DNA of 64,000 nucleotides from contig JASJPK010000048.1 of the NCBI GenBank assembly GCA_031426735.1, positions 92,607-156,606 on the forward strand. The letters are read 5' to 3'. This document shows positions 6,494 to 63,593 of the stretch, piece after piece (the first letter of the stretch is position 1; each line of letters opens with the position of its first letter). This stretch comes from Hydrogenophilaceae bacterium (lineage in GTDB: Bacteria > Pseudomonadota > Gammaproteobacteria > Burkholderiales > Thiobacillaceae). Made by a program: the position numbers and the translations under genes. Below the pieces are notes generated by a model. The model saw only the letters and a list, made by a program, of their open reading frames with translations, ran no database searches and was not told the origin of the DNA.

Positions 6494-8575
<2,082 letters not shown>

Positions 8576-48651: not shown

Positions 48652-49089
48652 TCAGTGCCCGCCGGGTTTGCGTACTTCCGCTTGCACGTCCAGCTTCTGT
48701 TCCTTGCCGTCCGCGCCTTTCGCGATCAACGTGATCGGCACCTTGTCACCGGGTTTGATCTGCTGCTTGATGCCGATGAACATGATGTGCAGCCCTCCCG
48801 GCTGCAGCTTCACGGTCTCGCCTTTGGGCAGCGCGATCTCCTTGACCTGACGCATTTCCATGACACCGCCATCCATTTTCATGATGTGCAGTTCGAGCGA
48901 TCGGGACACCGGGCTGCTGCCGCCGACCAGTGCCATGTCGGCATCGGCGGTGAGTTGCATGAAGCCGCCGGCCACCTTCTGGCCGGGCGCGGTGGCACGC
49001 ACCCAGGCGTCTTCGATCTTGACGCTGTCGGCAAGCGCGGGGAGGGCGAGGCTCATGCCCAGAATCAGGGGGAGCAAGCTGCGATACAT
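48652..49089 (-). CDS. periplasmic copper chaperone PCu(A)C (DUF461)
   Basis: ATG at 49089. Signal peptide. Blocks AWVRATAPGQKVAGGFM and LHIMKMDGGVMEMR..GGLHIMF (H(M)x10Mx21HxM-type Met/His motif). Confidence 0.85.
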   Translation of the reverse strand: MYRSLLPLILGMSLALPALADSVKIEDAWVRATAPGQKVAGGFMQLTADADMALVGGSSPVSRSLELHIMKMDGGVMEMRQVKEIALPKGETVKLQPGGLHIMFIGIKQQIKPGDKVPITLIAKGADGKEQKLDVQAEVRKPGGH

Positions 49090-49100
49090 GGCGATTCCTT

Positions 49101-51170
49101 TCACAAAATCCATTCCAGTTGAGCTAAGGCGAAGCGGCCGGCACTGGGAAGGTGGGTGCCGACGGCCACATCGCCGCCGCTGACGCGGTTGATGCCGCCG
49201 AGGTGGTCGTAATAAAGCTTGTCGAGCAGGTTGTCGATGCCGAAACGCATTTTCACGTTCTTGGCAGCCTGCCATTGCGCGTGCCAGTCGAACACGGCAT
49301 AGCCCGGCGTGATCGGTTCGTTGTTCAGCGCCGTGCCGCTGCCCGGCTTGGCGTACTGTGCCACGTCCTCCTGCCGCTGTGCCATGCGGACGCCCAACGT
49401 GTTGTCCCAGGCGCCGCGTCGATGGCTGGCTTGCAGGTTCAGGCGCAAGGGCGCGAGGCGGTACAGATTGCTGTCGCTATCCAGATTGCGGCCGCGCACA
49501 TAGCTCAGCGTCGCGTCTACATGCCATGCGCCAGCCTGGTAAGCCCAGACGCCGTCGATGCCTTGCAGGCGCGCATCATGGTTCTCGTAGCGCAACACGT
49601 TGTTGATGCCATCGGTGGTATGCGGCGTGCCGACGATGTAGTCGCCGACGCGCTGGTAGAACGCGCCCACCTTGTAGCTGTGCCCGCCTGCCTCGCCGTG
49701 CAGGGCAAGGTTCAGCGCATGCGCGACTTCAGGTTTCAGGTTCAGGTTGCCCAGATAACTGTTGTTGTCCGCCTGGCCGGCACTGGCGTTGAGCGGGGTC
49801 CATTCATAGCGTTCGAGCAGGCTGGGCGAACGCGTTTTGCGGGTCAGGCCCAACTCGTAGCCCAGGTCTGACGCAGCCGCGTACTGGAACAGCGCGTTCC
49901 AGTCCCAGTTGTGGTCGGTCTTCTTGTGCGACAAGGCGTTGAAAGCGCCGCCCAGGCCGGTTGTGGCGACCGCCTGCGCCGGGCCGGAACGGACCTGGCC
50001 GGTATCCATGCTTACCGTATCCGAACGCAGGCCCAGGTTGGCGCTCCAGGCGCCGCCGAGCGAACCTTGCCACTCGCCGAATACGCCCAGGCGCTCGCGG
50101 TTGGCATCGCGCAGGATGTCGGCCGCGAAGGCATTCGTGGTTGCATTCCACTGGTAGGCGTCGAAGTCGTTGCCCAGCCATTCCGCACCGAAACGCATCC
50201 GCCCGCCCGCCAGCTTGCGTTTGCCGCCGAGGACCAGGCCGACGTCCGTGCTGGTGGCGGGGGCATACATGCGGGTGCCGACGTTGGCGCGCAGGCTGTA
50301 GTTGTCCATCAGATGCTCGATGTCGTGCCAATACACGCGGGCGGTCGCGCTGGTATCGCCCAGCTTGCCTTCCCAGGCCAGATTCACCGCATTGGCGTCG
50401 TCCCTGATCATGTCCATCGGCAACGACGGGTTGCCGGCATCGCTGACCTGATGCCGACTCACGCTGACGTCGAAGCGGCCGCTTTCAGTGCCGCGCGCGT
50501 AGTTCAGTTTGTTGCGCCGGCTGTCGTAGCCGCTGTCTTTCACCGTGCCATGGGCATAGTTCAGATCGTCGCCCTGGGCAAAATTGCCGGCGTAGGACAG
50601 TGCATTGTTCCGGTTGCCGGTGCTGGCGTTTAGTCCCAGGTTCCAGCCGTCGTTGGCGCCGCTGAAACCGGCGTCGACCTTGCCGTTGGCTTGCCAGGCG
50701 TCGCCGGCGGAGAACTGCGGCCGCAGCGAACGCGCCAGGATCGTGGCGCCGAGCGCATCGCCGCCGGCCGATACTGGCGAGGCACCGGCGATCAGGCTCA
50801 GACTTTCGCTATCCGCTGCGGCTGCGTAGTGCAGTGGCGGGTCCATGTGGTTGGGGCAGGCCGGGGTGATGTCCATGCCGTCCACCAGGATGTTGACGCG
50901 GTCGCCGGCGAGACCGCGTACCTGCGCAATGCCGGTGAGCGGGCCGTTCTTCACCACGGCCGCACCGGGCAGTTCCGCCAGCGCGGTGGCAAGATCGGTA
51001 TGCAGCGGGGTGGGCATGGCCTGGCTGGTTGCGAACGGCGTGAAGCCGGGGCGCTGCGCCGTGACCAGGATTTCTTCCAGAACGGGGAGTTCGGCGGCGC
51101 TCGCCAGACAGGGCGGCAGGGCTAACAGCAGAGCTAAAGGCTTGAGTTTCATGCGAGGCTTCGGGGTCAT
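49101..51170 (-). CDS. TonB-dependent copper receptor (OprC/NosA-like)
   Basis: Plug and 22-strand barrel. C-terminal ...LAQLEWIL. CPNHM (CxxxM) and HLM (HxM) motifs resemble the OprC copper site. ATG at 51170 is preferred over the TTG at 51197. It lies 11 nt upstream of the PCuAC gene. Confidence 0.85.
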   Translation of the reverse strand: MTPKPRMKLKPLALLLALPPCLASAAELPVLEEILVTAQRPGFTPFATSQAMPTPLHTDLATALAELPGAAVVKNGPLTGIAQVRGLAGDRVNILVDGMDITPACPNHMDPPLHYAAAADSESLSLIAGASPVSAGGDALGATILARSLRPQFSAGDAWQANGKVDAGFSGANDGWNLGLNASTGNRNNALSYAGNFAQGDDLNYAHGTVKDSGYDSRRNKLNYARGTESGRFDVSVSRHQVSDAGNPSLPMDMIRDDANAVNLAWEGKLGDTSATARVYWHDIEHLMDNYSLRANVGTRMYAPATSTDVGLVLGGKRKLAGGRMRFGAEWLGNDFDAYQWNATTNAFAADILRDANRERLGVFGEWQGSLGGAWSANLGLRSDTVSMDTGQVRSGPAQAVATTGLGGAFNALSHKKTDHNWDWNALFQYAAASDLGYELGLTRKTRSPSLLERYEWTPLNASAGQADNNSYLGNLNLKPEVAHALNLALHGEAGGHSYKVGAFYQRVGDYIVGTPHTTDGINNVLRYENHDARLQGIDGVWAYQAGAWHVDATLSYVRGRNLDSDSNLYRLAPLRLNLQASHRRGAWDNTLGVRMAQRQEDVAQYAKPGSGTALNNEPITPGYAVFDWHAQWQAAKNVKMRFGIDNLLDKLYYDHLGGINRVSGGDVAVGTHLPSAGRFALAQLEWIL

Positions 51171-51211
51171 GGGGGCCTCGAATATTAGGGATTTCAACTA
51201 CGGTGCCGCCT

Positions 51212-51402: not shown

Positions 51403-52653
51403 ATGCTTTCGCTTACCAGATTATTCCGGGTCGCTCACGAAGTGCCGAACGTGGCGCAGCAGCGCCTGATCAAGGTGCGCGCCGCGCTGATCCTGAGCGA
51501 ATGGGCTGGCGTCGCTCTGCTTGTGCTGGGGCTGCATGCAAGTTTGCCGCTGCGGCCGCTCGCCTTAATTCTCGCTGTGCACGTGATCTTGAATGGCGTC
51601 GCCTGGCTGCGCCTGCGCGCCGGTGGCGCGGCGCAGACGGAAGTGGCGTTGCAACTGGCGGTCGATGCGTCCTGCATCGGTGCGCTGGTGTTCCTGACCG
51701 GCGGCTATGCCAACCCTTTCATTTCGCTGTTGCTGGCGCCGCTGATTCTGGCTGCGGTGACCTTGCCGCCGCTGCACGCATGGGGCATGGCGTTGTGGGT
51801 CGGCGGGCTTTATACGGTGCTGATGCGCTTCTATCACCCATTGCAGATCCAGGTTTCGCCCGAGGCGGCGGTGGATCTGCATTTATCCGGCATGTGGCTG
51901 AATTTTCTGTTGACCGCTGCACTGGTCGCAGCATTTGCCGGCCGCCAGGCGGCGAGTTTGCGGCGTCGCGATGCGGAACTGGCGCAAGCGCGCGAACAAC
52001 GTCTGCGCGACGAGCAATTGTTCGCGCTCGGCCTGCAAGCTGCCACGGCGGCACACGATCTGGCGACGCCGATGACTTCGGTTCGCATTGCGCTGGACGA
52101 GTTGAGGCGTGATTACGCAGGCGACGATGAACTGGCCCAGCCGCTGGCCTTGCTTTCCGGTCAGGTGACCCGCATGCAGAGCGTGCTGGATCGTCTGGGG
52201 GCGTCGGCGCGGGCGCGCGATACCCGTCAACGCGCCGGACCGCCGCTGCCGGCGCGGGCCTGGCTGGCGCGGACATTGGAACGCTGGGGGCTGATGTGGC
52301 CGCAAGTCCGGGTTCACCTGGATGTGGCAGCCGAGGTGGCGGATGGTCAGCTGTTATTGGAGGACGATCCGGCGCTGGAGGCAGTCCTGATCGTGCTGCT
52401 CAACAATGCCGCGCAGGCCTCGCCCGATGACGTGAGCTTGTCGGCCAGTCGTTCGGGTGAGTCCCTGTGCCTTGCTGTGGTGGATTGCGGCGGTGGCTTG
52501 GCCAGCGGCAAACGAACGGGCTGGGGCGTCGGTCTGGAGCTGGCGCGCGCGGCACTGGAACGCATGGGCGGTGAACTGGAAATCGGGACATCGGAGAGTG
52601 GCGGCGTTAAAGCCCGCATCATCCTGCCGCTCCCCCTGATGGCGTCGACGTGA
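51403..52653 (+). CDS. regB: RegB/PrrB/ActS-type membrane histidine kinase
   Basis: Six N-terminal TM helices, H-box AAHDLATPMTS, N/G boxes. The stop overlaps the regA start. Confidence 0.75.
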   Translation: MLSLTRLFRVAHEVPNVAQQRLIKVRAALILSEWAGVALLVLGLHASLPLRPLALILAVHVILNGVAWLRLRAGGAAQTEVALQLAVDASCIGALVFLTGGYANPFISLLLAPLILAAVTLPPLHAWGMALWVGGLYTVLMRFYHPLQIQVSPEAAVDLHLSGMWLNFLLTAALVAAFAGRQAASLRRRDAELAQAREQRLRDEQLFALGLQAATAAHDLATPMTSVRIALDELRRDYAGDDELAQPLALLSGQVTRMQSVLDRLGASARARDTRQRAGPPLPARAWLARTLERWGLMWPQVRVHLDVAAEVADGQLLLEDDPALEAVLIVLLNNAAQASPDDVSLSASRSGESLCLAVVDCGGGLASGKRTGWGVGLELARAALERMGGELEIGTSESGGVKARIILPLPLMAST

Positions 52654-53183
52654 TGCGTTGGCATATCCTGATCGTCGACGATGACGCCGTGTTCGCCCAG
52701 ACCCTGGCGTACGCCATGACACGGCGTGGCCATCGGGTCGATGCGGCGGAAAATATCGAAGCGGCGTTGAGCATGGCGGCGAGCCAGAACTTCGATGCCG
52801 TGGTGCTGGATTTGCGCCTCGGCGCCGAGTCCGGCCTGCATCTGATCGAGCCGCTGCGCCAGCGCCAACCGCAGGCGCGCATCCTGCTGCTGACCGGCTA
52901 TGCCAGCATCGCAACCGCAGTTGCGGCGATCAAACTGGGTGCCGTGCAATACCTGCCGAAACCGGCGAGCGTGGAGGCGATACTGGCCGCCCTGGGCGAC
53001 GACAGCGGTGGCGAGGATGTCGATCTGCCGGATGCGCCGTTATCGGTGGATCGTCTGGAGTGGGAGCACATCCAGAAGGTACTGGCGCAGCACGAAGGCA
53101 ATCTGTCCGCGACGGCGCGGGCGCTGAAAATGCACCGGCGCACCTTGCAGCGCAAACTCGCCAAACGTCCGGTCAAAGCCTGA
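52653..53183 (+). CDS. regA: RegA/PrrA/ActR-type response regulator
   Basis: REC (ILIVDDD...VVLDLRLG...LLLTGY..LPKP) and the very conserved C-terminal HTH NLSATARALKMHRRTLQRKLAKRP. Confidence 0.85.
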   Translation: MRWHILIVDDDAVFAQTLAYAMTRRGHRVDAAENIEAALSMAASQNFDAVVLDLRLGAESGLHLIEPLRQRQPQARILLLTGYASIATAVAAIKLGAVQYLPKPASVEAILAALGDDSGGEDVDLPDAPLSVDRLEWEHIQKVLAQHEGNLSATARALKMHRRTLQRKLAKRPVKA

Positions 53184-53184
53184 T

Positions 53185-53230
53185 CGGTTCAAGGCCAGAC
53201 CGGTTCAAGGCCAGACCGGTTCAAGGCGCC
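53185..53230. repeat. 16-bp tandem repeat (CGGTTCAAGGCCAGAC x2 plus a diverged third copy)
   Basis: Read directly. The third copy (CGGTTCAAGGCGCC) contains the hslV stop codon and last codons. It sits between the convergent regA and hslV genes. Confidence 0.8.
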
Positions 53231-53760
53231 AGCGTTTCGATCAGGATGTTGCGGTTGGTATAGATGCAGATGTCGGCGGCGATGCCGATCGATTCCCTGA
53301 CGATGGTTTCCGGATCGAGGTCGCTATGTTCCAGCAGGGCGCGTGCCGCCGACTGGGCGTAAGCACCACCGCTGCCGATGGCGGCGATGCCCTGTTCGGG
53401 TTCCAGCACATCGCCGGCGCCGGTGATGATCAGGGTGCTGGTGTGGTCGGCCACCGCCAGCATGGCTTCCAGGCGACGCAGGATACGGTCGGTACGCCAG
53501 TCCTTGGCCAGTTCCACCGCGCTCCTGACCAGGTGCCCCTGGTGCTTGTCGAGCTTGGCTTCGAACCGTTCGAACAAGGTGAACGCATCCGCCGTGCCGC
53601 CCGCGAAGCCGGCCAGGATGCGCTCCTGATACAGGCGGCGGATTTTGCGGGCGCTGGCTTTGATGACGATGTTGCCGAGGGTGACCTGGCCGTCGCCGCC
53701 CATGGCGACGGAGCCGCCGCGGCGAACGGAAAGGATGGTGGTGCCGTGAAATTGTTCCAT
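53221..53760 (-). CDS. hslV: ATP-dependent protease subunit HslV
   Basis: ATG at 53760. [16 protein letters not shown]...GDGQVTLG (N-terminal Thr after processing). Confidence 0.9.
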
Positions 53761-53808
53761 GTGCGTCTTGCTGAAAAGAGGAGAGGCTGGCAACGCCGGC
53801 GGGACTGG

Positions 53809-54936
53809 CTAGGCGCGGGTGCGTCCGAGGACCACGGCGAACTGACTGGCGCCAACGATGTGGAGCAGGGTGTTCACCAGTTCGTTGCCTTCCTTGAACA
53901 GGATCTTGCTGCCTGCCGCGGAGATGGCAATCAGGTTTTCGAGTAACAGGCCAACCACGGAGAAGTCGATACGGCTGACCTGACTGAGGTCGATTTCAAC
54001 CTGCTTGCGGCCTTCTGCATACTGTTTGAGATCTTTGAACTGTGCTTCGCAGCCGGGGCCGATCAGGCCGGTCAGCTTGAATGCGGTGTCCAGTGCCGGG
54101 GCGGCAAGCGTATCGGCCTTGCCGTTCTTGTTCGGTAGCGGGCGCGGTTGCGTGTAGGAGGGCGGCGAAACCTCGAATGCAACGGCGTAGTCAACCGCCG
54201 CATTGTCGAAATCGTCCTCCTTGCCCAGCAATTGCAATACCGCCAGGAACAGGAACCAGCCAGACTCGGACAGGCGTTCGCCTTGGCGTGCCGCATCCAG
54301 CCTTACCGCGAATCCCGCTCCGCCGATCAGTTCGACGGGCTTGCGCATTTCATCCAGATGGATGAAGTCGTTCAGAATCGCACGGGCGGTTTCTTCATCC
54401 GGTGCCAGCGTCTTGGAAACGTCGAGCCGCACATAGGGGGCATGTTCCGCATCGTGGAAAAAACGACTTTGCTTGACGCGTTCCAGGCTGCCGTATTTTT
54501 CGCCATAAGTCATCAGCGGCGCCGGCTGGCTGCTGCCTTTCGGCTTGTCGCGCGGGGTCCAGGTCGGCGGCGAACGCTCGAACTTCACCGCGAAGTCGAC
54601 AGCGGCATCCTCGAACGGAGCGGACTGGTCGCTGACCTCGTAGAGGTCGAACAACATGTACCAGGGCAGCGGATCATGGTTGTCGCGGTGGTCGAGCAGG
54701 TAGCGGTTGAGCAATGCCGCGGTTTCGCCGATCTTGCCGTTGGCATACAAGATCGCCGCTTCTTCCAGTTCCGGCACCAGGCCGCCCATGGCTTCCTGCA
54801 CTTCGATCCCGCCGCTGACGTCTTCCGCGGGGCGTTTGGCGCCCGCGTAGGCCGGTCCGGGACCGAACGCGTCATGGCCTTCCTTGAGGAAAGCAAGGAA
54901 ATCGTCAGGTTTTTCTTTGCGGAAGAAGGAAAACAC
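53809..54936 (-). CDS. hypothetical protein with internal duplication and C-terminal STAS-like domain
   Basis: GTG start. Two related modules (..FEDAAVDFAVKFERSPPTW.. / ..FDNAAVDYAVAFEVSPPSY..). The C-terminus VEIDLSQVSRIDFSVVGLLLENL... is STAS-like. Confidence 0.6.
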   Translation of the reverse strand: MFSFFRKEKPDDFLAFLKEGHDAFGPGPAYAGAKRPAEDVSGGIEVQEAMGGLVPELEEAAILYANGKIGETAALLNRYLLDHRDNHDPLPWYMLFDLYEVSDQSAPFEDAAVDFAVKFERSPPTWTPRDKPKGSSQPAPLMTYGEKYGSLERVKQSRFFHDAEHAPYVRLDVSKTLAPDEETARAILNDFIHLDEMRKPVELIGGAGFAVRLDAARQGERLSESGWFLFLAVLQLLGKEDDFDNAAVDYAVAFEVSPPSYTQPRPLPNKNGKADTLAAPALDTAFKLTGLIGPGCEAQFKDLKQYAEGRKQVEIDLSQVSRIDFSVVGLLLENLIAISAAGSKILFKEGNELVNTLLHIVGASQFAVVLGRTRA

Positions 54937-55060: not shown

Positions 55061-55990
<930 letters not shown>

Positions 55991-56023
55991 CTACAAAGCC
56001 GCAAACCGGGACGGCAAAAAAAG

Positions 56024-56048
56024 GGCGGCCGCGACCGCCCTTCGTATA
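56024..56048 (-). terminator. intrinsic terminator of the hsp20 gene
   Basis: The minus strand reads GGGCGG UCGCGG CCGCCC followed by UUUUUUU. Confidence 0.7.
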
Positions 56049-56060
56049 AACGCTGCCGGA

Positions 56061-56495
56061 TCATTGGATCGCCAATTTCCTGGCTGCGGAAACGGCTTTC
56101 TTGGGCAGCGTCAATTCCAGTATGCCGTTTTCGAATTTGGCCCGCGCGCCGGCTTCGTCCACATCCTGGCCGAGTGCGAAACTGCGGTAAACCTTGCCGT
56201 AGTAACGCTCGCTGCGCAGAACCTTGTCGCCTTCCTTTTGTTCGCTGTTTTTTTTGATCTCGGCGCTTACTGCGACCGTGTTGCCTTCCAGCGTGACATG
56301 AATATCGTCTTTGCCCACCCCAGGCAACTCGGCATGCACCGTGTAATCCTTGTCACTTTCCTTCACATCCATTTTGATCTTTTGCATCTCGTGCATTTCT
56401 GCTGGAAACCGCATCGGACGCACAAAATAACCTCTGAACATATCATCCAGCATGTCATCGAGCGCGAAAGGATCTCGCCGAACGATGTTGCTCAT
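56061..56495 (-). CDS. Hsp20/alpha-crystallin small heat-shock protein
   Basis: ATG at 56495 after AGAAAGGAGCC. Alpha-crystallin domain (DVKESDKDYTVHAELPGVGKDDIHVTL...GILELTLPK). Confidence 0.9.
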   Translation of the reverse strand: MSNIVRRDPFALDDMLDDMFRGYFVRPMRFPAEMHEMQKIKMDVKESDKDYTVHAELPGVGKDDIHVTLEGNTVAVSAEIKKNSEQKEGDKVLRSERYYGKVYRSFALGQDVDEAGARAKFENGILELTLPKKAVSAARKLAIQ

Positions 56496-56547
56496 GATTG
56501 GCTCCTTTCTGTGATGAAAACCGGAAATCCATCCGGCTGGCAATTTC

Positions 56548-56575
56548 ATTATTGCTTCGATTCGAAGCAATTCAA
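56548..56575 (-). promoter_or_regulatory. candidate sigma70 promoter of hsp20 with a 21-bp perfect palindrome in the spacer
   Basis: On the minus strand: TTGAAT, 16 nt, then AATAAT. The palindrome ATTGCTTCGA-T-TCGAAGCAAT (56551-56571) fills the spacer. Confidence 0.4.
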
Positions 56576-56785
56576 GATGTAGCTATCTTATTGACTTTAA
56601 TAAAGAACTTGCCGTTTTTCAGGGCAGCGCCTAGATTGGATGCGTCCGATAAAAATCATGGATCGACGGGAATAAAACTTGATTTCCCGCTGTTTGTGCT
56701 TTGCCGAACCCAGCCTGAGGAGGAGGGGGGAAGCGAACCTTGCCACTACCGGCATTCTTCGTTTTGAACGATTTGGAGATTCAAC

Positions 56786-57151
56786 ATGGCTACTAATAAA
56801 ACCGCTCTGACCCTGGCGCTGGGTTCCGCCATCGCTGCTTCGCTGGCCGCCGCACCGGCATCCGCCAACGAGAACCCGTTTGCGGCACAGTCGATGACAA
56901 AGGGCTATATGGTCGCCGAGGCGGCCCCCGACGCCGCCAAAGCCCCGGAAGCGAAGTGTGGCGCGCAGAAGCGCATGGAAGGCAAGTGCGGCAATAAAGC
57001 CAAAGCCAAGGCCAAGGAAGGCAAGTGCGGTGGCATGAAGAGCGCCGCCGATGTCGAGGCGAACAAGAAAATGATGAAGGAAGGCAAATGCGGCGAGGGC
57101 ATGTGCGGCGCCAAAAATGCCAAGGAAGGCAAGTGCGGCGGCAAGAACTGA
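56786..57151 (+). CDS. secreted Cys-repeat (EGKCG) RiPP precursor, HvfA/bufferin-like
   Basis: GGAGA SD. Signal peptide ..SLAAAPASA|NE. Six Cys in EAKCG, EGKCG (x4) and EGMCG contexts. It is followed by DUF692 and DUF2063 genes. Confidence 0.75.
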   Translation: MATNKTALTLALGSAIAASLAAAPASANENPFAAQSMTKGYMVAEAAPDAAKAPEAKCGAQKRMEGKCGNKAKAKAKEGKCGGMKSAADVEANKKMMKEGKCGEGMCGAKNAKEGKCGGKN

Positions 57152-57173
57152 TTGCCGCCAGTTTGCCAGGCGC

Positions 57174-58019
57174 ATGAACGCTCCGCGTCTTTCCGGCGCG
57201 GGACTCGGCTTTCGGCGCGATCTCATTCCCGCGCTGAAAGCCGGGGTTCCCGCAGCCATCGATTTCTTTGAGCTCGCGCCGGAAAACTGGATCGATATGG
57301 GCGGTCGCTATGCCCGCGATCTGCGTGAGTTCAGCGAACGCCATCCCTTCGTCTGCCATGGCCTGTCGCTCTCCCTGGGCGGTCCGACGCCGCTGGATGA
57401 AGTGCTGTTACGCAAGATCAAGTCCTTCATGGCCACGCATCGGATGCCGCTTTACACCGAACATCTGTCCTACTGTTCCGACCACGGCCATCTTTACGAC
57501 CTTCTGCCGATTCCGCCCACGGCCGAGGCGGTGAAATATGTGGCCACCCGCATTCGCCGCGTGCAGGACATCCTGGAACAGAAGATCGCCATCGAAAATG
57601 CCAGTTATTACGTGGCCGCGCCGATCGGCGAGATGGACGAGCCGACCTTCATCAACGCCGTGCTGGCGGAAGCCGACTGCTGGCTGCATCTGGATGTGAA
57701 CAACATCTACGTCAACAGCGTCAACTTCAAGTTCGACCCGATCGACTACCTGCGCCGCATGCCCGCCGAGCGCATCGTCTATATGCACATGGCCGGCCAT
57801 TACCAGCAAGCGCCCGATCTCATCATCGACACCCACGGCGCCGACGTGATCGATCCGGTCTGGCAATTGCTGGACACCGCGTATGACTTGTTGGGCGTGC
57901 ATCCCACCTGCCTGGAACGGGATTTCAATATTCCGCCGCTTCCTGCGTTGCTATCGGAAGTCGTACATATCAAGGAAATTCAGGTCGGGCATGCGGAACG
58001 GGCAACACGGGCGGCATGA
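57174..58019 (+). CDS. DUF692/UPF0276 MNIO-family (MbnB-like) peptide-modifying enzyme
   Basis: ATG at 57174. Blocks GLGFRRDL, FFELAPENW, HGLSLSLGG, YTEHLSY, AIENASYY, LHLDVNNIYVNS, MHMAGH, IDTHG. Confidence 0.85.
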   Translation: MNAPRLSGAGLGFRRDLIPALKAGVPAAIDFFELAPENWIDMGGRYARDLREFSERHPFVCHGLSLSLGGPTPLDEVLLRKIKSFMATHRMPLYTEHLSYCSDHGHLYDLLPIPPTAEAVKYVATRIRRVQDILEQKIAIENASYYVAAPIGEMDEPTFINAVLAEADCWLHLDVNNIYVNSVNFKFDPIDYLRRMPAERIVYMHMAGHYQQAPDLIIDTHGADVIDPVWQLLDTAYDLLGVHPTCLERDFNIPPLPALLSEVVHIKEIQVGHAERATRAA

Positions 58020-58786
58020 GCGTGGATAGGCAGCCGATGGATTTCCAGCAATACCAGCGCGAATTTACCGCCCACATCCGCGATCCGCAGGGGGTAAGCC
58101 GCCCCAAGGGCGTGCCGGCGCGTCGCATGAAGGTCTACAACGCGCTGCTCTACAACAACCTGGAGGGTTTTCTGCTCTCCTGCTTCCCGGTTTGCCGCAA
58201 GATTCTCGGTCAGCGTCGCTGGACTCGGCTGGTCCGCGCTTTCATGCGCGACCACGTCAGCCACACCCCGTATTTCCGGCAGATTCCCGAAGAGTTCCTG
58301 AACTATCTGCAGAGTGAGTGGCAGCGTCCCGACGACGTGCCGCCCTTCCTGCCGGAGTTGGCGCATTACGAATGGATCGAACTCGAACTGGATACGTCCG
58401 ACCGCGATGCGGATCTGCCCGAGCATGATGCGGCGGGCGACTTGCTGGCAGGCCGGCCGCTGCTCAACCCGGTCTTGCGCGTGCTGGCCTATCGCTGGCC
58501 GGTGCATCGGCTTTCGCCGCGATTCAAGCCGATCGAACCACCCGCGCAGGCCACCTTCACGCTGGCGTTTCGCGATGCCGAGCATCGCGTCCGCTTCGTG
58601 TTGCTCAACCCGGCCAGCGCGCGTCTGCTCAACCTGTTACAGGAAAACCCCGAGTCGAGCGGACGCGCGGCGGTCGTTTCACTTGCCCAGGAAATGGGGC
58701 TCTCGCCCGATGCCTTGCTCGGCTTTGCGCAAAGCCTGCTGCAAGACTTATTAGCGCAAGGCGCTATTCTCGGAGTTCGGGTCTGA
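58016..58786 (+). CDS. DUF2063-family (MbnC-like) RiPP maturation partner
   Basis: ATGA overlap with the DUF692 gene. The N-terminal pattern FQQYQREFTAHIRDP...RMKVYNALLYNNLEGFLLSCFPV is typical of DUF2063. Confidence 0.8.
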   Translation: MSVDRQPMDFQQYQREFTAHIRDPQGVSRPKGVPARRMKVYNALLYNNLEGFLLSCFPVCRKILGQRRWTRLVRAFMRDHVSHTPYFRQIPEEFLNYLQSEWQRPDDVPPFLPELAHYEWIELELDTSDRDADLPEHDAAGDLLAGRPLLNPVLRVLAYRWPVHRLSPRFKPIEPPAQATFTLAFRDAEHRVRFVLLNPASARLLNLLQENPESSGRAAVVSLAQEMGLSPDALLGFAQSLLQDLLAQGAILGVRV

Positions 58787-58953
58787 TCGGCGTCGTTCGC
58801 AAACCTGCGGTTGAACTGTGCCGGTGTTGAAAGTAGTATCTCCCGGTTTCGCCTCAATATTCATTGCCCGGTCGCGTATCGGGCGAGCCGCGTCAGACAC
58901 CCTCGGTTTGGCGCGTGCAGCGGTTAGTCGAGGGATGGATAGGGTTAGCAGTA

Positions 58954-63593
<4,640 letters not shown>

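Follow-up and report, generated by a model that had tools for sequence, protein, structure and literature searches.

Which kind of peptide system is encoded by three tightly packed genes at positions 56786–58786 of the stretch of DNA shown above, and what can be said of its product from characterised relatives? The whole stretch, hereafter the window, comprises 64,000 nucleotides of contig JASJPK010000048.1 from a Hydrogenophilaceae bacterium, and an earlier note on it had described a secreted Cys-repeat peptide gene followed by genes for DUF692 and DUF2063 proteins as a locus for a ribosomally synthesised and post-translationally modified peptide (RiPP), of the HvfA/bufferin metallophore type. 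Our analysis indicates that it is very probably an hvfABC or "captophorin" (Buf_EGKCG/oxazolin) RiPP cluster of a Thiobacillus-like betaproteobacterium, whose product, by homology with characterised systems, would be modified at its Cys residues, exported and used in the buffering of Cu(I).

Gene content and family assignment

The first gene, hvfA (56786–57151, plus strand), encodes a precursor of 121 aa of the HvfA family and is preceded, 7 nt 5' of its ATG, by the Shine-Dalgarno sequence GGAG (56775–56778, plus strand; read from the sequence). The second, hvfB (57174–58019, plus strand), has its ATG at 57174, 22 nt past the hvfA TGA (57149–57151), and codes for a 281-aa peptide maturase that belongs to the MNIO (multinuclear non-heme iron oxidase, formerly DUF692) family. 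Its end is overlapped through an ATGA by the third gene, hvfC (58016–58786, plus strand), which encodes a 256-aa DUF2063 partner protein with a putative C-terminal domain of the RiPP recognition element (RRE) type. The coordinates and the Pfam matches thus confirmed the order of the two maturation genes, the 22-nt gap and the ATGA overlap given in the earlier note. Hidden Markov model searches for MNIO, DUF2063 and HvfA-type precursors, proposed there as a check, all returned matches (NF003818, NF050145 and NF050137; PF05114 and PF09836).

In the NCBIfam collection, the second gene scored 417 bits with the HvfB equivalog NF003818 (cutoff 360), the third one 296 bits with the HvfC equivalog NF050145 (cutoff 142), and the precursor passed the HvfA-family repeat model NF050137 with 30.3 bits (cutoff 19.5). 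Pfam assigned the second gene to PF05114 (MbnB_TglH_ChrH; MNIO) with 336 bits (cutoff 25) and the third to PF09836 (DUF2063) and PF22106 (NGO1945_C) with 95 and 98 bits, respectively, whereas PqqD-type matches on HvfC residues 194–251 were weak and under the cutoffs (E = 0.004–0.008). As the three genes passed the HvfB, HvfC and HvfA-family models, the locus was assigned as an hvfABC cluster. The nearest solved structures were those of PDB 3BWW (Histophilus somni DUF692) for HvfB, with 254 bits, and of PDB 3DEE for HvfC, which resembles this NGO1945 protein of Neisseria with 63 bits; both structures have been assigned to the EGKCG/captophorin class (PMC12668002).

As in bufferins (BufA, of the DUF2282 or Buf2 type, with BufBC) and in methanobactin (MbnABC), an MNIO and a DUF2063-type partner would oxidise Cys residues to Cu-binding heterocycles, and bufferins likewise function in the periplasm and have signal peptides of the Sec type (PMC11626156, PMC12452194). 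However, the second gene reached only 249 bits with the BufB model NF050167 (cutoff 310) and 38 bits with the MbnB model TIGR04159 (cutoff 325). These far lower scores place the enzyme in the HvfB branch, outside both the strict bufferin maturases and the methanobactin enzymes. The precursor had no match in the Pfam scan, DUF2282 included, which again sets it apart from strict bufferins. In consequence, the HvfA/EGKCG (Lys-Cys) half of the label "HvfA/bufferin type" was kept, and the bufferin half, in its strict sense, had to be dropped. The window locus showed none of the marks of methanobactin, be it the leader peptide, the oxazolone/thioamide chemistry or the genes for secretion and uptake, and the window precursor carries a Sec signal.

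The catalytic residues of HvfB were located by alignment to Vibrio MbnB (VcMbnB), with positions mapped by script. The nine iron ligands of MbnB, as listed in PMC8888699, are all conserved: residues H62, H97, E141, D174, N177, H205, D219, H221 and E248 of HvfB correspond, in this order, to H55, H91, E135, D165, N168, H194, D209, H211 and E238 of VcMbnB. In addition, D250 aligns with the general base D240 of VcMbnB (PMC8888699). The motifs GFRRD (R14, R15) and ERDF (D250, F251) are also present, and by motif and numbering these residues appear to be the counterparts of R15/R16, D249 and F250 in FonB of Fontimonas thermophila. Mutagenesis has linked R15/R16/F250 of FonB to the recognition of Glu-x-Lys-Cys substrates (PMC12668002). 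Both the catalytic and the specificity residues of the window enzyme are intact.

A search with the precursor (E <= 0.001) retrieved 630 homologues, the best of them 84% identical, so an identical precursor is absent from the sequence collection searched. Scanning one genome per species yielded at least 320 confirmed loci spread over Beta- and Gammaproteobacteria, of which 80 were kept for analysis. The linkage of the three genes is conserved among them, with hvfA, hvfB and hvfC contiguous in 60 of the 80. Such loci number in the thousands according to published surveys, and since the three genes are already named by current NCBIfam models, the cluster raises no new question; it adds another hvfABC/captophorin cluster, from a sulfur-oxidiser-like betaproteobacterium.

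Leader and core of the precursor

The N-terminus of the precursor, MATNK-TALTLALGSAIAASLAAAP-ASA followed by NE, has by eye a basic n-region, a hydrophobic h-region and an A-x-A site at positions -3/-1, and looks like a typical Sec/signal peptidase I signal. In the alignment, hvfA homologues keep both the hydrophobic core and the A-x-A site, and from these sequence features and their conservation the Sec signal peptide is predicted to span residues 1–27 (56786–56866, plus strand), with cleavage between ASA and NE. The ribosome-binding site and the export signal that had been described for the 121-aa open reading frame (ORF) were both recovered. The mature product is predicted to have 94 aa, to be rich in Lys, Gly and Ala, and to be disordered. 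An AlphaFold model of the precursor had a mean predicted local distance difference test (pLDDT) score of 49 and no confident fold, so that neither a beta-helix nor any other fold is supported; such a low pLDDT is consistent with a disordered, flexible precursor peptide.

The first Cys of the precursor is residue 58, and the approximately 30 mature residues before it are Cys-free. This N-terminal part, which had been considered unusual for its length and lack of repeats, is, judging from the alignment, the conserved leader of the family (NPF..GYMVA). Within it, the segment NPFAAQSMTKGYMVAE (residues 30–45; 56873–56920, plus strand) has F32, Y41 and A44 invariant, and P31, G40, M42 and V43 at least 90% conserved, across 27 sequences. 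Of 121 sequences, made up of the window precursor and its 120 best homologues and used again for the repeat statistics below, 114 have a G[YF]x[VL]A motif, and the NPF..GY segment is visible in homologues of Microbulbifer, Alteromonas, Shewanella, Methylovulum and others. In the study of the Microbulbifer system, a highly conserved leader was modelled together with the partner protein's RRE (PMC12538549), and by analogy the segment NPFAAQSMTKGYMVAE is likely the recognition element for HvfC.

Downstream of the leader, the core region (56948–57148, plus strand; read from the sequence) consists of six [E][G/A][K/M]CG units. Mapping of the six Cys (C58, C68, C81, C102, C107 and C117) bore out the contexts reported earlier, namely EAKCG, EGKCG, EGKCG, EGKCG, EGMCG and EGKCG, in this order. 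The fourfold recurrence of a DNA word was equally confirmed, as GAAGGCAARTGCGG has four copies, every one of them within the hvfA ORF, where shuffled sequences would be expected to give 0 and 0/100 shuffles reached 4. The sole tandem Cys pair is C102/C107, and the other four Cys lie in isolated units 10–21 residues apart.

Among the 121 sequences, six was the commonest number of Cys (54/121), and the most frequent 5-mers were EGKCG (477), DGKCG (93), EAKCG (57), EGNCG (17) and EGMCG (11), so the AKCG and GMCG variants can no longer be regarded as unusual. A Cys-Cys spacing of 5 (165 cases) was about as common as one of 10 (149 cases), and the proportion of Cys in 5-spaced tandems averaged 45% across sequences versus 2/6 in the window precursor. 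The Met content of the core was 6.4%, versus a median of 3.2% in the homologues.

Residues 89–108 of hvfA (57050–57110), with the pattern D-x-E-A-N-K-K-M-M-K-EGKCGEG(M/K/L)CG, are conserved among Thiobacillus-like homologues, and the Met residues of this segment might act as extra Cu(I) ligands.

Compared with known systems, the locus resembles hvfABC(X) of nontypeable Haemophilus influenzae (NTHi; oxazolin) in combining a Sec signal, six modifiable Cys in EGKCG units, and an MNIO with a DUF2063-type partner. In contrast, NTHi HvfA, of 95 aa, has its AEGKCGEGKCG cassette three times in tandem, and C38/C43 as an N-terminal disulfide pair (PMC11252979), while the window precursor has one tandem pair, four isolated units and no extra Cys. 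The NTHi operon also encodes the DoxX-like HvfX (PMC11252979), a type of gene missing from the 64 kb of the window.

In this respect the locus is like mmrABC of Microbulbifer (bulbicupramide fragment), a three-gene cluster without DoxX and also without a protease (PMC12538549), for which thiooxazoles and Cu(I) binding have been demonstrated (PMC12538549). The precursors of mmrABC clusters, like that of the window, join a conserved N-terminal leader to a variable EGKCG core, with 5–8 Cys in Microbulbifer (PMC12538549). The proteins of a Microbulbifer locus (L065) were 47% (hvfA), 62% (hvfB) and 39% (hvfC) identical to those of the window, with the NPF..GY leader common to both. The differences lie in the gammaproteobacterial host, the regular di-Cys cassettes of the mmrABC core, and the genomic context.

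Finally, the EGKCG 5-mer is shared with fonABC of Fontimonas thermophila (fontiphorin) and the ngo cluster of Neisseria gonorrhoeae (gonophorin), which form the "captophorin" Lys-Cys group, and FonA itself includes an EAKCG variant, as the window precursor does. Fontiphorin carries seven 5-thiooxazoles, versus the six Cys of the window precursor, which include a unit with Met at position 3 and isolated repeats.

These comparisons bear on a reading in which the precursor represents an uncharacterised core architecture, with most of its Cys in isolated KxKEGKCG units spaced as above and flanked by Met (KKMMKEGKCGEGMCG). If HvfBC did process isolated units, unlike FonBC with a single-repeat peptide, Cu(I) sites would have to form between distant thiooxazoles or from a thiooxazole and Met ligands, with a stoichiometry or binding mode unlike that of the tandem di-Cys cassettes studied to date. 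However, isolated units are common among the homologues, and the architecture therefore marks a gap in characterisation and not a peculiarity of this locus; we consider this reading unlikely. The locus would still offer a natural test case, of modest value, for the processing of non-tandem EGKCG units and of a position-3 Met, and for copper binding by such peptides.

Two further observations concern precursors of related loci. In L015, L051, L059, L064 and L072, a precursor homologue was found without hvfB or hvfC in the 8 kb downstream, and stand-alone precursors of that kind have been reported (PMC12452194). In addition, in a Hydrogenophilales metagenome-assembled genome (L020), the precursor frame (8001–8283) ends at 49 aa, shortly beyond the GYMVA leader, and hvfB and hvfC are only 44–45% identical to those of the window; possible explanations are decay or replacement of the cluster, or a fault in the assembly.

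Proposed chemistry and role, and the alternatives

The sequence of the locus fits each prerequisite of such a system, and from characterised relatives we infer how the peptide would be modified and exported, bind copper and act in the cell. The 121-aa precursor would be translated in the cytoplasm and caught before export by an HvfB-HvfC heterodimer, the putative C-terminal RRE-type domain of HvfC binding the conserved NPF..GYMVA segment, the signal peptide or both. HvfB and HvfC form a heterodimer and the precursor is bound by HvfC (PMC11252979). The active diiron state requires HvfC, and full-length HvfA, including its signal peptide, is preferentially modified in vitro, which suggests that the signal peptide is leader-like (10.64898/2026.07.17.739211). 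With a mixed-valent Fe(II)/Fe(III) centre and O2, HvfB would then carry out a four-electron oxidation at each Lys/Met-Cys-Gly unit, turning Cys into 5-thiooxazole with a change of -4 Da per Cys, up to a maximum of six per peptide.

The modified peptide would be exported by Sec and cleaved after Ala27, and the disordered, Lys-rich product of 94 residues would sequester Cu(I) in the periplasm through thiooxazole N,S ligands, buffering copper excess. A change of -4 Da per Cys, absorbance at ~302–305 nm and Cu(I) binding have been described for the relatives oxazolin, fontiphorin, gonophorin and bulbicupramide (PMC11252979, PMC12668002, PMC12538549). Fontiphorin binds up to 4 Cu (PMC12668002), and bufferins guard against copper excess (PMC11626156).

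Several points weigh against this proposal. The precursor failed the strict HvfA equivalog NF050188 (32.7 bits versus a cutoff of 95) and is, by its sequence, a member of the HvfA family and not an orthologue of NTHi HvfA. FonBC left a short single-repeat peptide unmodified in vitro (PMC12668002), and with four of the Cys in isolated units, it is uncertain that all six sites would be processed. Met at position 3 of the repeat (EGMCG) was not among the variants examined in that study (PMC12668002), and the four isolated units together with the EGMCG unit mean that the number of modified sites and the formation of copper sites could differ from those of tandem-cassette peptides. A copper-protective role is unproven for EGKCG peptides, and the Microbulbifer cluster was unexpressed under the conditions tried (PMC12538549). 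Finally, neither a copper regulator nor a recognisable copper-responsive operator was found beside hvfABC.

The modified peptide might alternatively serve copper supply and not detoxification, as a periplasmic Cu(I) store or a relay to cuproenzymes via PCuAC-type chaperones in a respiratory chemolithotroph. Support for this comes from a PCuAC gene (48652–49275, minus strand; PF04314, 121 bits), located 5.5–8 kb upstream of hvfA together with other copper-related genes. It lies beside the gene of a TonB-dependent receptor (49101–51197, minus strand) whose best match is a copper-receptor family. In one related locus (L046) hvfC is immediately followed by a PCuAC homologue, and the stable inheritance of the cluster at a housekeeping position would also fit.

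Nevertheless, the receptor scored 210 bits, far under the copper-receptor cutoff of 472, and hslV, a STAS-domain gene, argB and hsp20 separate the copper-related genes from hvfA. A divergent RegB/RegA-like two-component pair (51403–53183, plus strand) was also below the equivalog cutoffs for both members. The earlier note had pointed to the proximity of these OprC-like, PCuAC and RegBA copper genes. The genes are real, but their link to hvfABC is a loose one, across several kilobases and behind housekeeping genes. Moreover, the literature on relatives indicates induction by, and protection from, metal excess (PMC11626156, PMC12668002), and the cluster has no dedicated exporter or uptake gene. 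A role in supply is, on this balance, rather improbable.

With the same enzymology, the product could instead carry methanobactin-like oxazolone/thioamide pairs, the chemistry anticipated in the earlier note. This was the original assignment for HvfA, as oxazolin (PMC11252979), the NCBIfam family name still reads "oxazolone/thioamide-modified", and a mass change of -4 Da fits these groups and 5-thiooxazole equally. However, oxazolin and related EGKCG products have since been reassigned to 5-thiooxazole by two independent studies, one from the Mitchell group (PMC12668002) and the other from the original authors (10.64898/2026.06.05.730506), which supersedes the older view. In addition, the window enzyme is near HvfB and remote from MbnB by the scores given above. 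We thus hold oxazolone/thioamide pairs to be quite improbable.

The peptide could also have its main function in protection from a different stress, for example from thiophilic metals other than copper or from oxidative or proteotoxic stress of the envelope, and its copper binding would then be incidental. Related clusters have been tied to oxidative stress and other metals (PMC12452194, PMC12668002, PMC11252979), and a divergent hsp20 gene (56061–56495, minus strand; PF00011) uses the same intergenic region as hvfABC. Nonetheless, the adjacency of hsp20 is limited to a few Thiobacillus-like loci and is missing in a close relative (L002) that retains hvfABC, and all characterised EGKCG products bind Cu(I), which makes this function very improbable. 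That the small ORF encodes a secreted low-complexity protein left unmodified by HvfBC, or that the cluster is inactive, is extremely improbable: stand-alone precursor genes do exist (in related loci and in PMC12452194) and the closely related L020 has a truncated precursor, but the three genes of the window are intact and tightly packed (22-nt gap, ATGA overlap), the catalytic residues of HvfB are intact, and the gene order is kept across 60 loci.

Gene neighbourhood and regulation

The nearest genome locus (L001) belongs to the metagenome-assembled "Hydrogenophilales bacterium 28-61-23", with protein identities to the window of 80% for hvfA, 86% for hvfB, 86% for hvfC, 94% for argB and 93% for gltB. 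It has the gene order of the window, regB-regA-hslV-STAS protein-argB-hsp20-hvfABC-gltBD, and L002 has the same order minus hsp20. This common order indicates that the cluster was inherited in place and not inserted. The gltB gene downstream of hvfC is real (NF008730, 1736 bits), as the earlier note had it, but the insertion upstream of gltBD that it had suggested was rejected, since the series from regB to gltBD, with or without hsp20, is also present in L001 and L002. Similarly, the divergent hsp20 is genuine but not unusual. It adjoins the cluster only in L001, L003, L020 and L046 and is absent from L002 despite the presence of hvfABC, so a functional tie between the two was rejected and hsp20 is a lineage-specific neighbour of hvfABC.

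An hvf-linked DoxX (PF07681 by Pfam) was detected in 27 of the 80 related loci, and within ~1.2 kb downstream of hvfC in 22 of 60 analysed loci. The search by tblastn with hvf-linked DoxX proteins of related loci gave no match in the window (best E = 1.1), and DoxX was absent from every Thiobacillus-like locus examined. Surveys have reported the four gene types in varied combinations (PMC12452194), and the class is not defined by DoxX (PMC12452194, PMC12538549). The lack of a DoxX-like fourth gene pointed out previously is therefore correct, but it is nothing unusual. In the Thiobacillus-like lineage, the cluster lacks DoxX and keeps to a fixed position through vertical inheritance. A tblastn search of the window for additional copies of hvfA, hvfB or hvfC found none, and no second precursor or small ORF was plausible in the intergenic regions 56500–56785 and 58787–58953.

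As promoter of hvfABC we propose, from sequence alignment, the putative sigma-70-type element TTGCCG (56609–56614), 17-nt spacer, TAGATT (56632–56637) on the plus strand, which would leave an mRNA leader of ~140 nt. It lies in the best-conserved intergenic block of the alignment with L001, L002 and L020, with an A/T-rich stretch upstream. Only 8 of its 12 positions match the consensus, and for this reason it was not reported by the consensus scan, which returned no strong promoter before hvfA. An Rfam scan of 55900–59100 (E up to 1) gave one chance-level match only and no element in the ~140-nt leader. By eye, the conserved intergenic block contained no convincing MerR/CueR-type long-spacer dyad and no -35/-10 pair of the extracytoplasmic function (ECF) sigma factor type. 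The scan for terminator-like sites found none between hvfC and gltB (58787–58953), so that read-through from hvfABC into gltBD is possible.

On the hsp20 side of the same intergenic region, an inverted repeat of two perfectly matching 9-bp arms around a single nucleotide, TTGCTTCGA-T-TCGAAGCAA (56552–56570), sits between -35-like and -10-like minus-strand hexamers of the consensus scan upstream of hsp20. It looks like an operator, from its sequence and position, and the alignment shows no conservation of it in L001, the closest relative.

Regarding the copper-related genes, the PCuAC homologue of L046 (10091–10471, minus strand) is 46% identical to the PCuAC of the window and convergent with hvfC. 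This is the sole direct hvf-PCuAC adjacency among the loci seen, and hints weakly at a connection with copper.

Between these genes and hvfABC, the hslV gene (53221–53793, minus strand) was considered as an instance of the betaproteobacterial proteasome homologue BPH, and this was rejected, as its product is a canonical HslV that scores 243 bits with the E. coli protein. It has no adjoining hslU, and its downstream side is occupied by the regA-like response regulator gene on the opposite strand, an adjacency of regA and hslV likewise present in L001 and L002. Finally, the gene between hslV and argB (53809–54936, minus strand) encodes a protein of 375 aa with a weak C-terminal STAS domain, under the Pfam cutoff, and no NCBIfam match; its counterparts in L001 and L002 are 82–84% identical.

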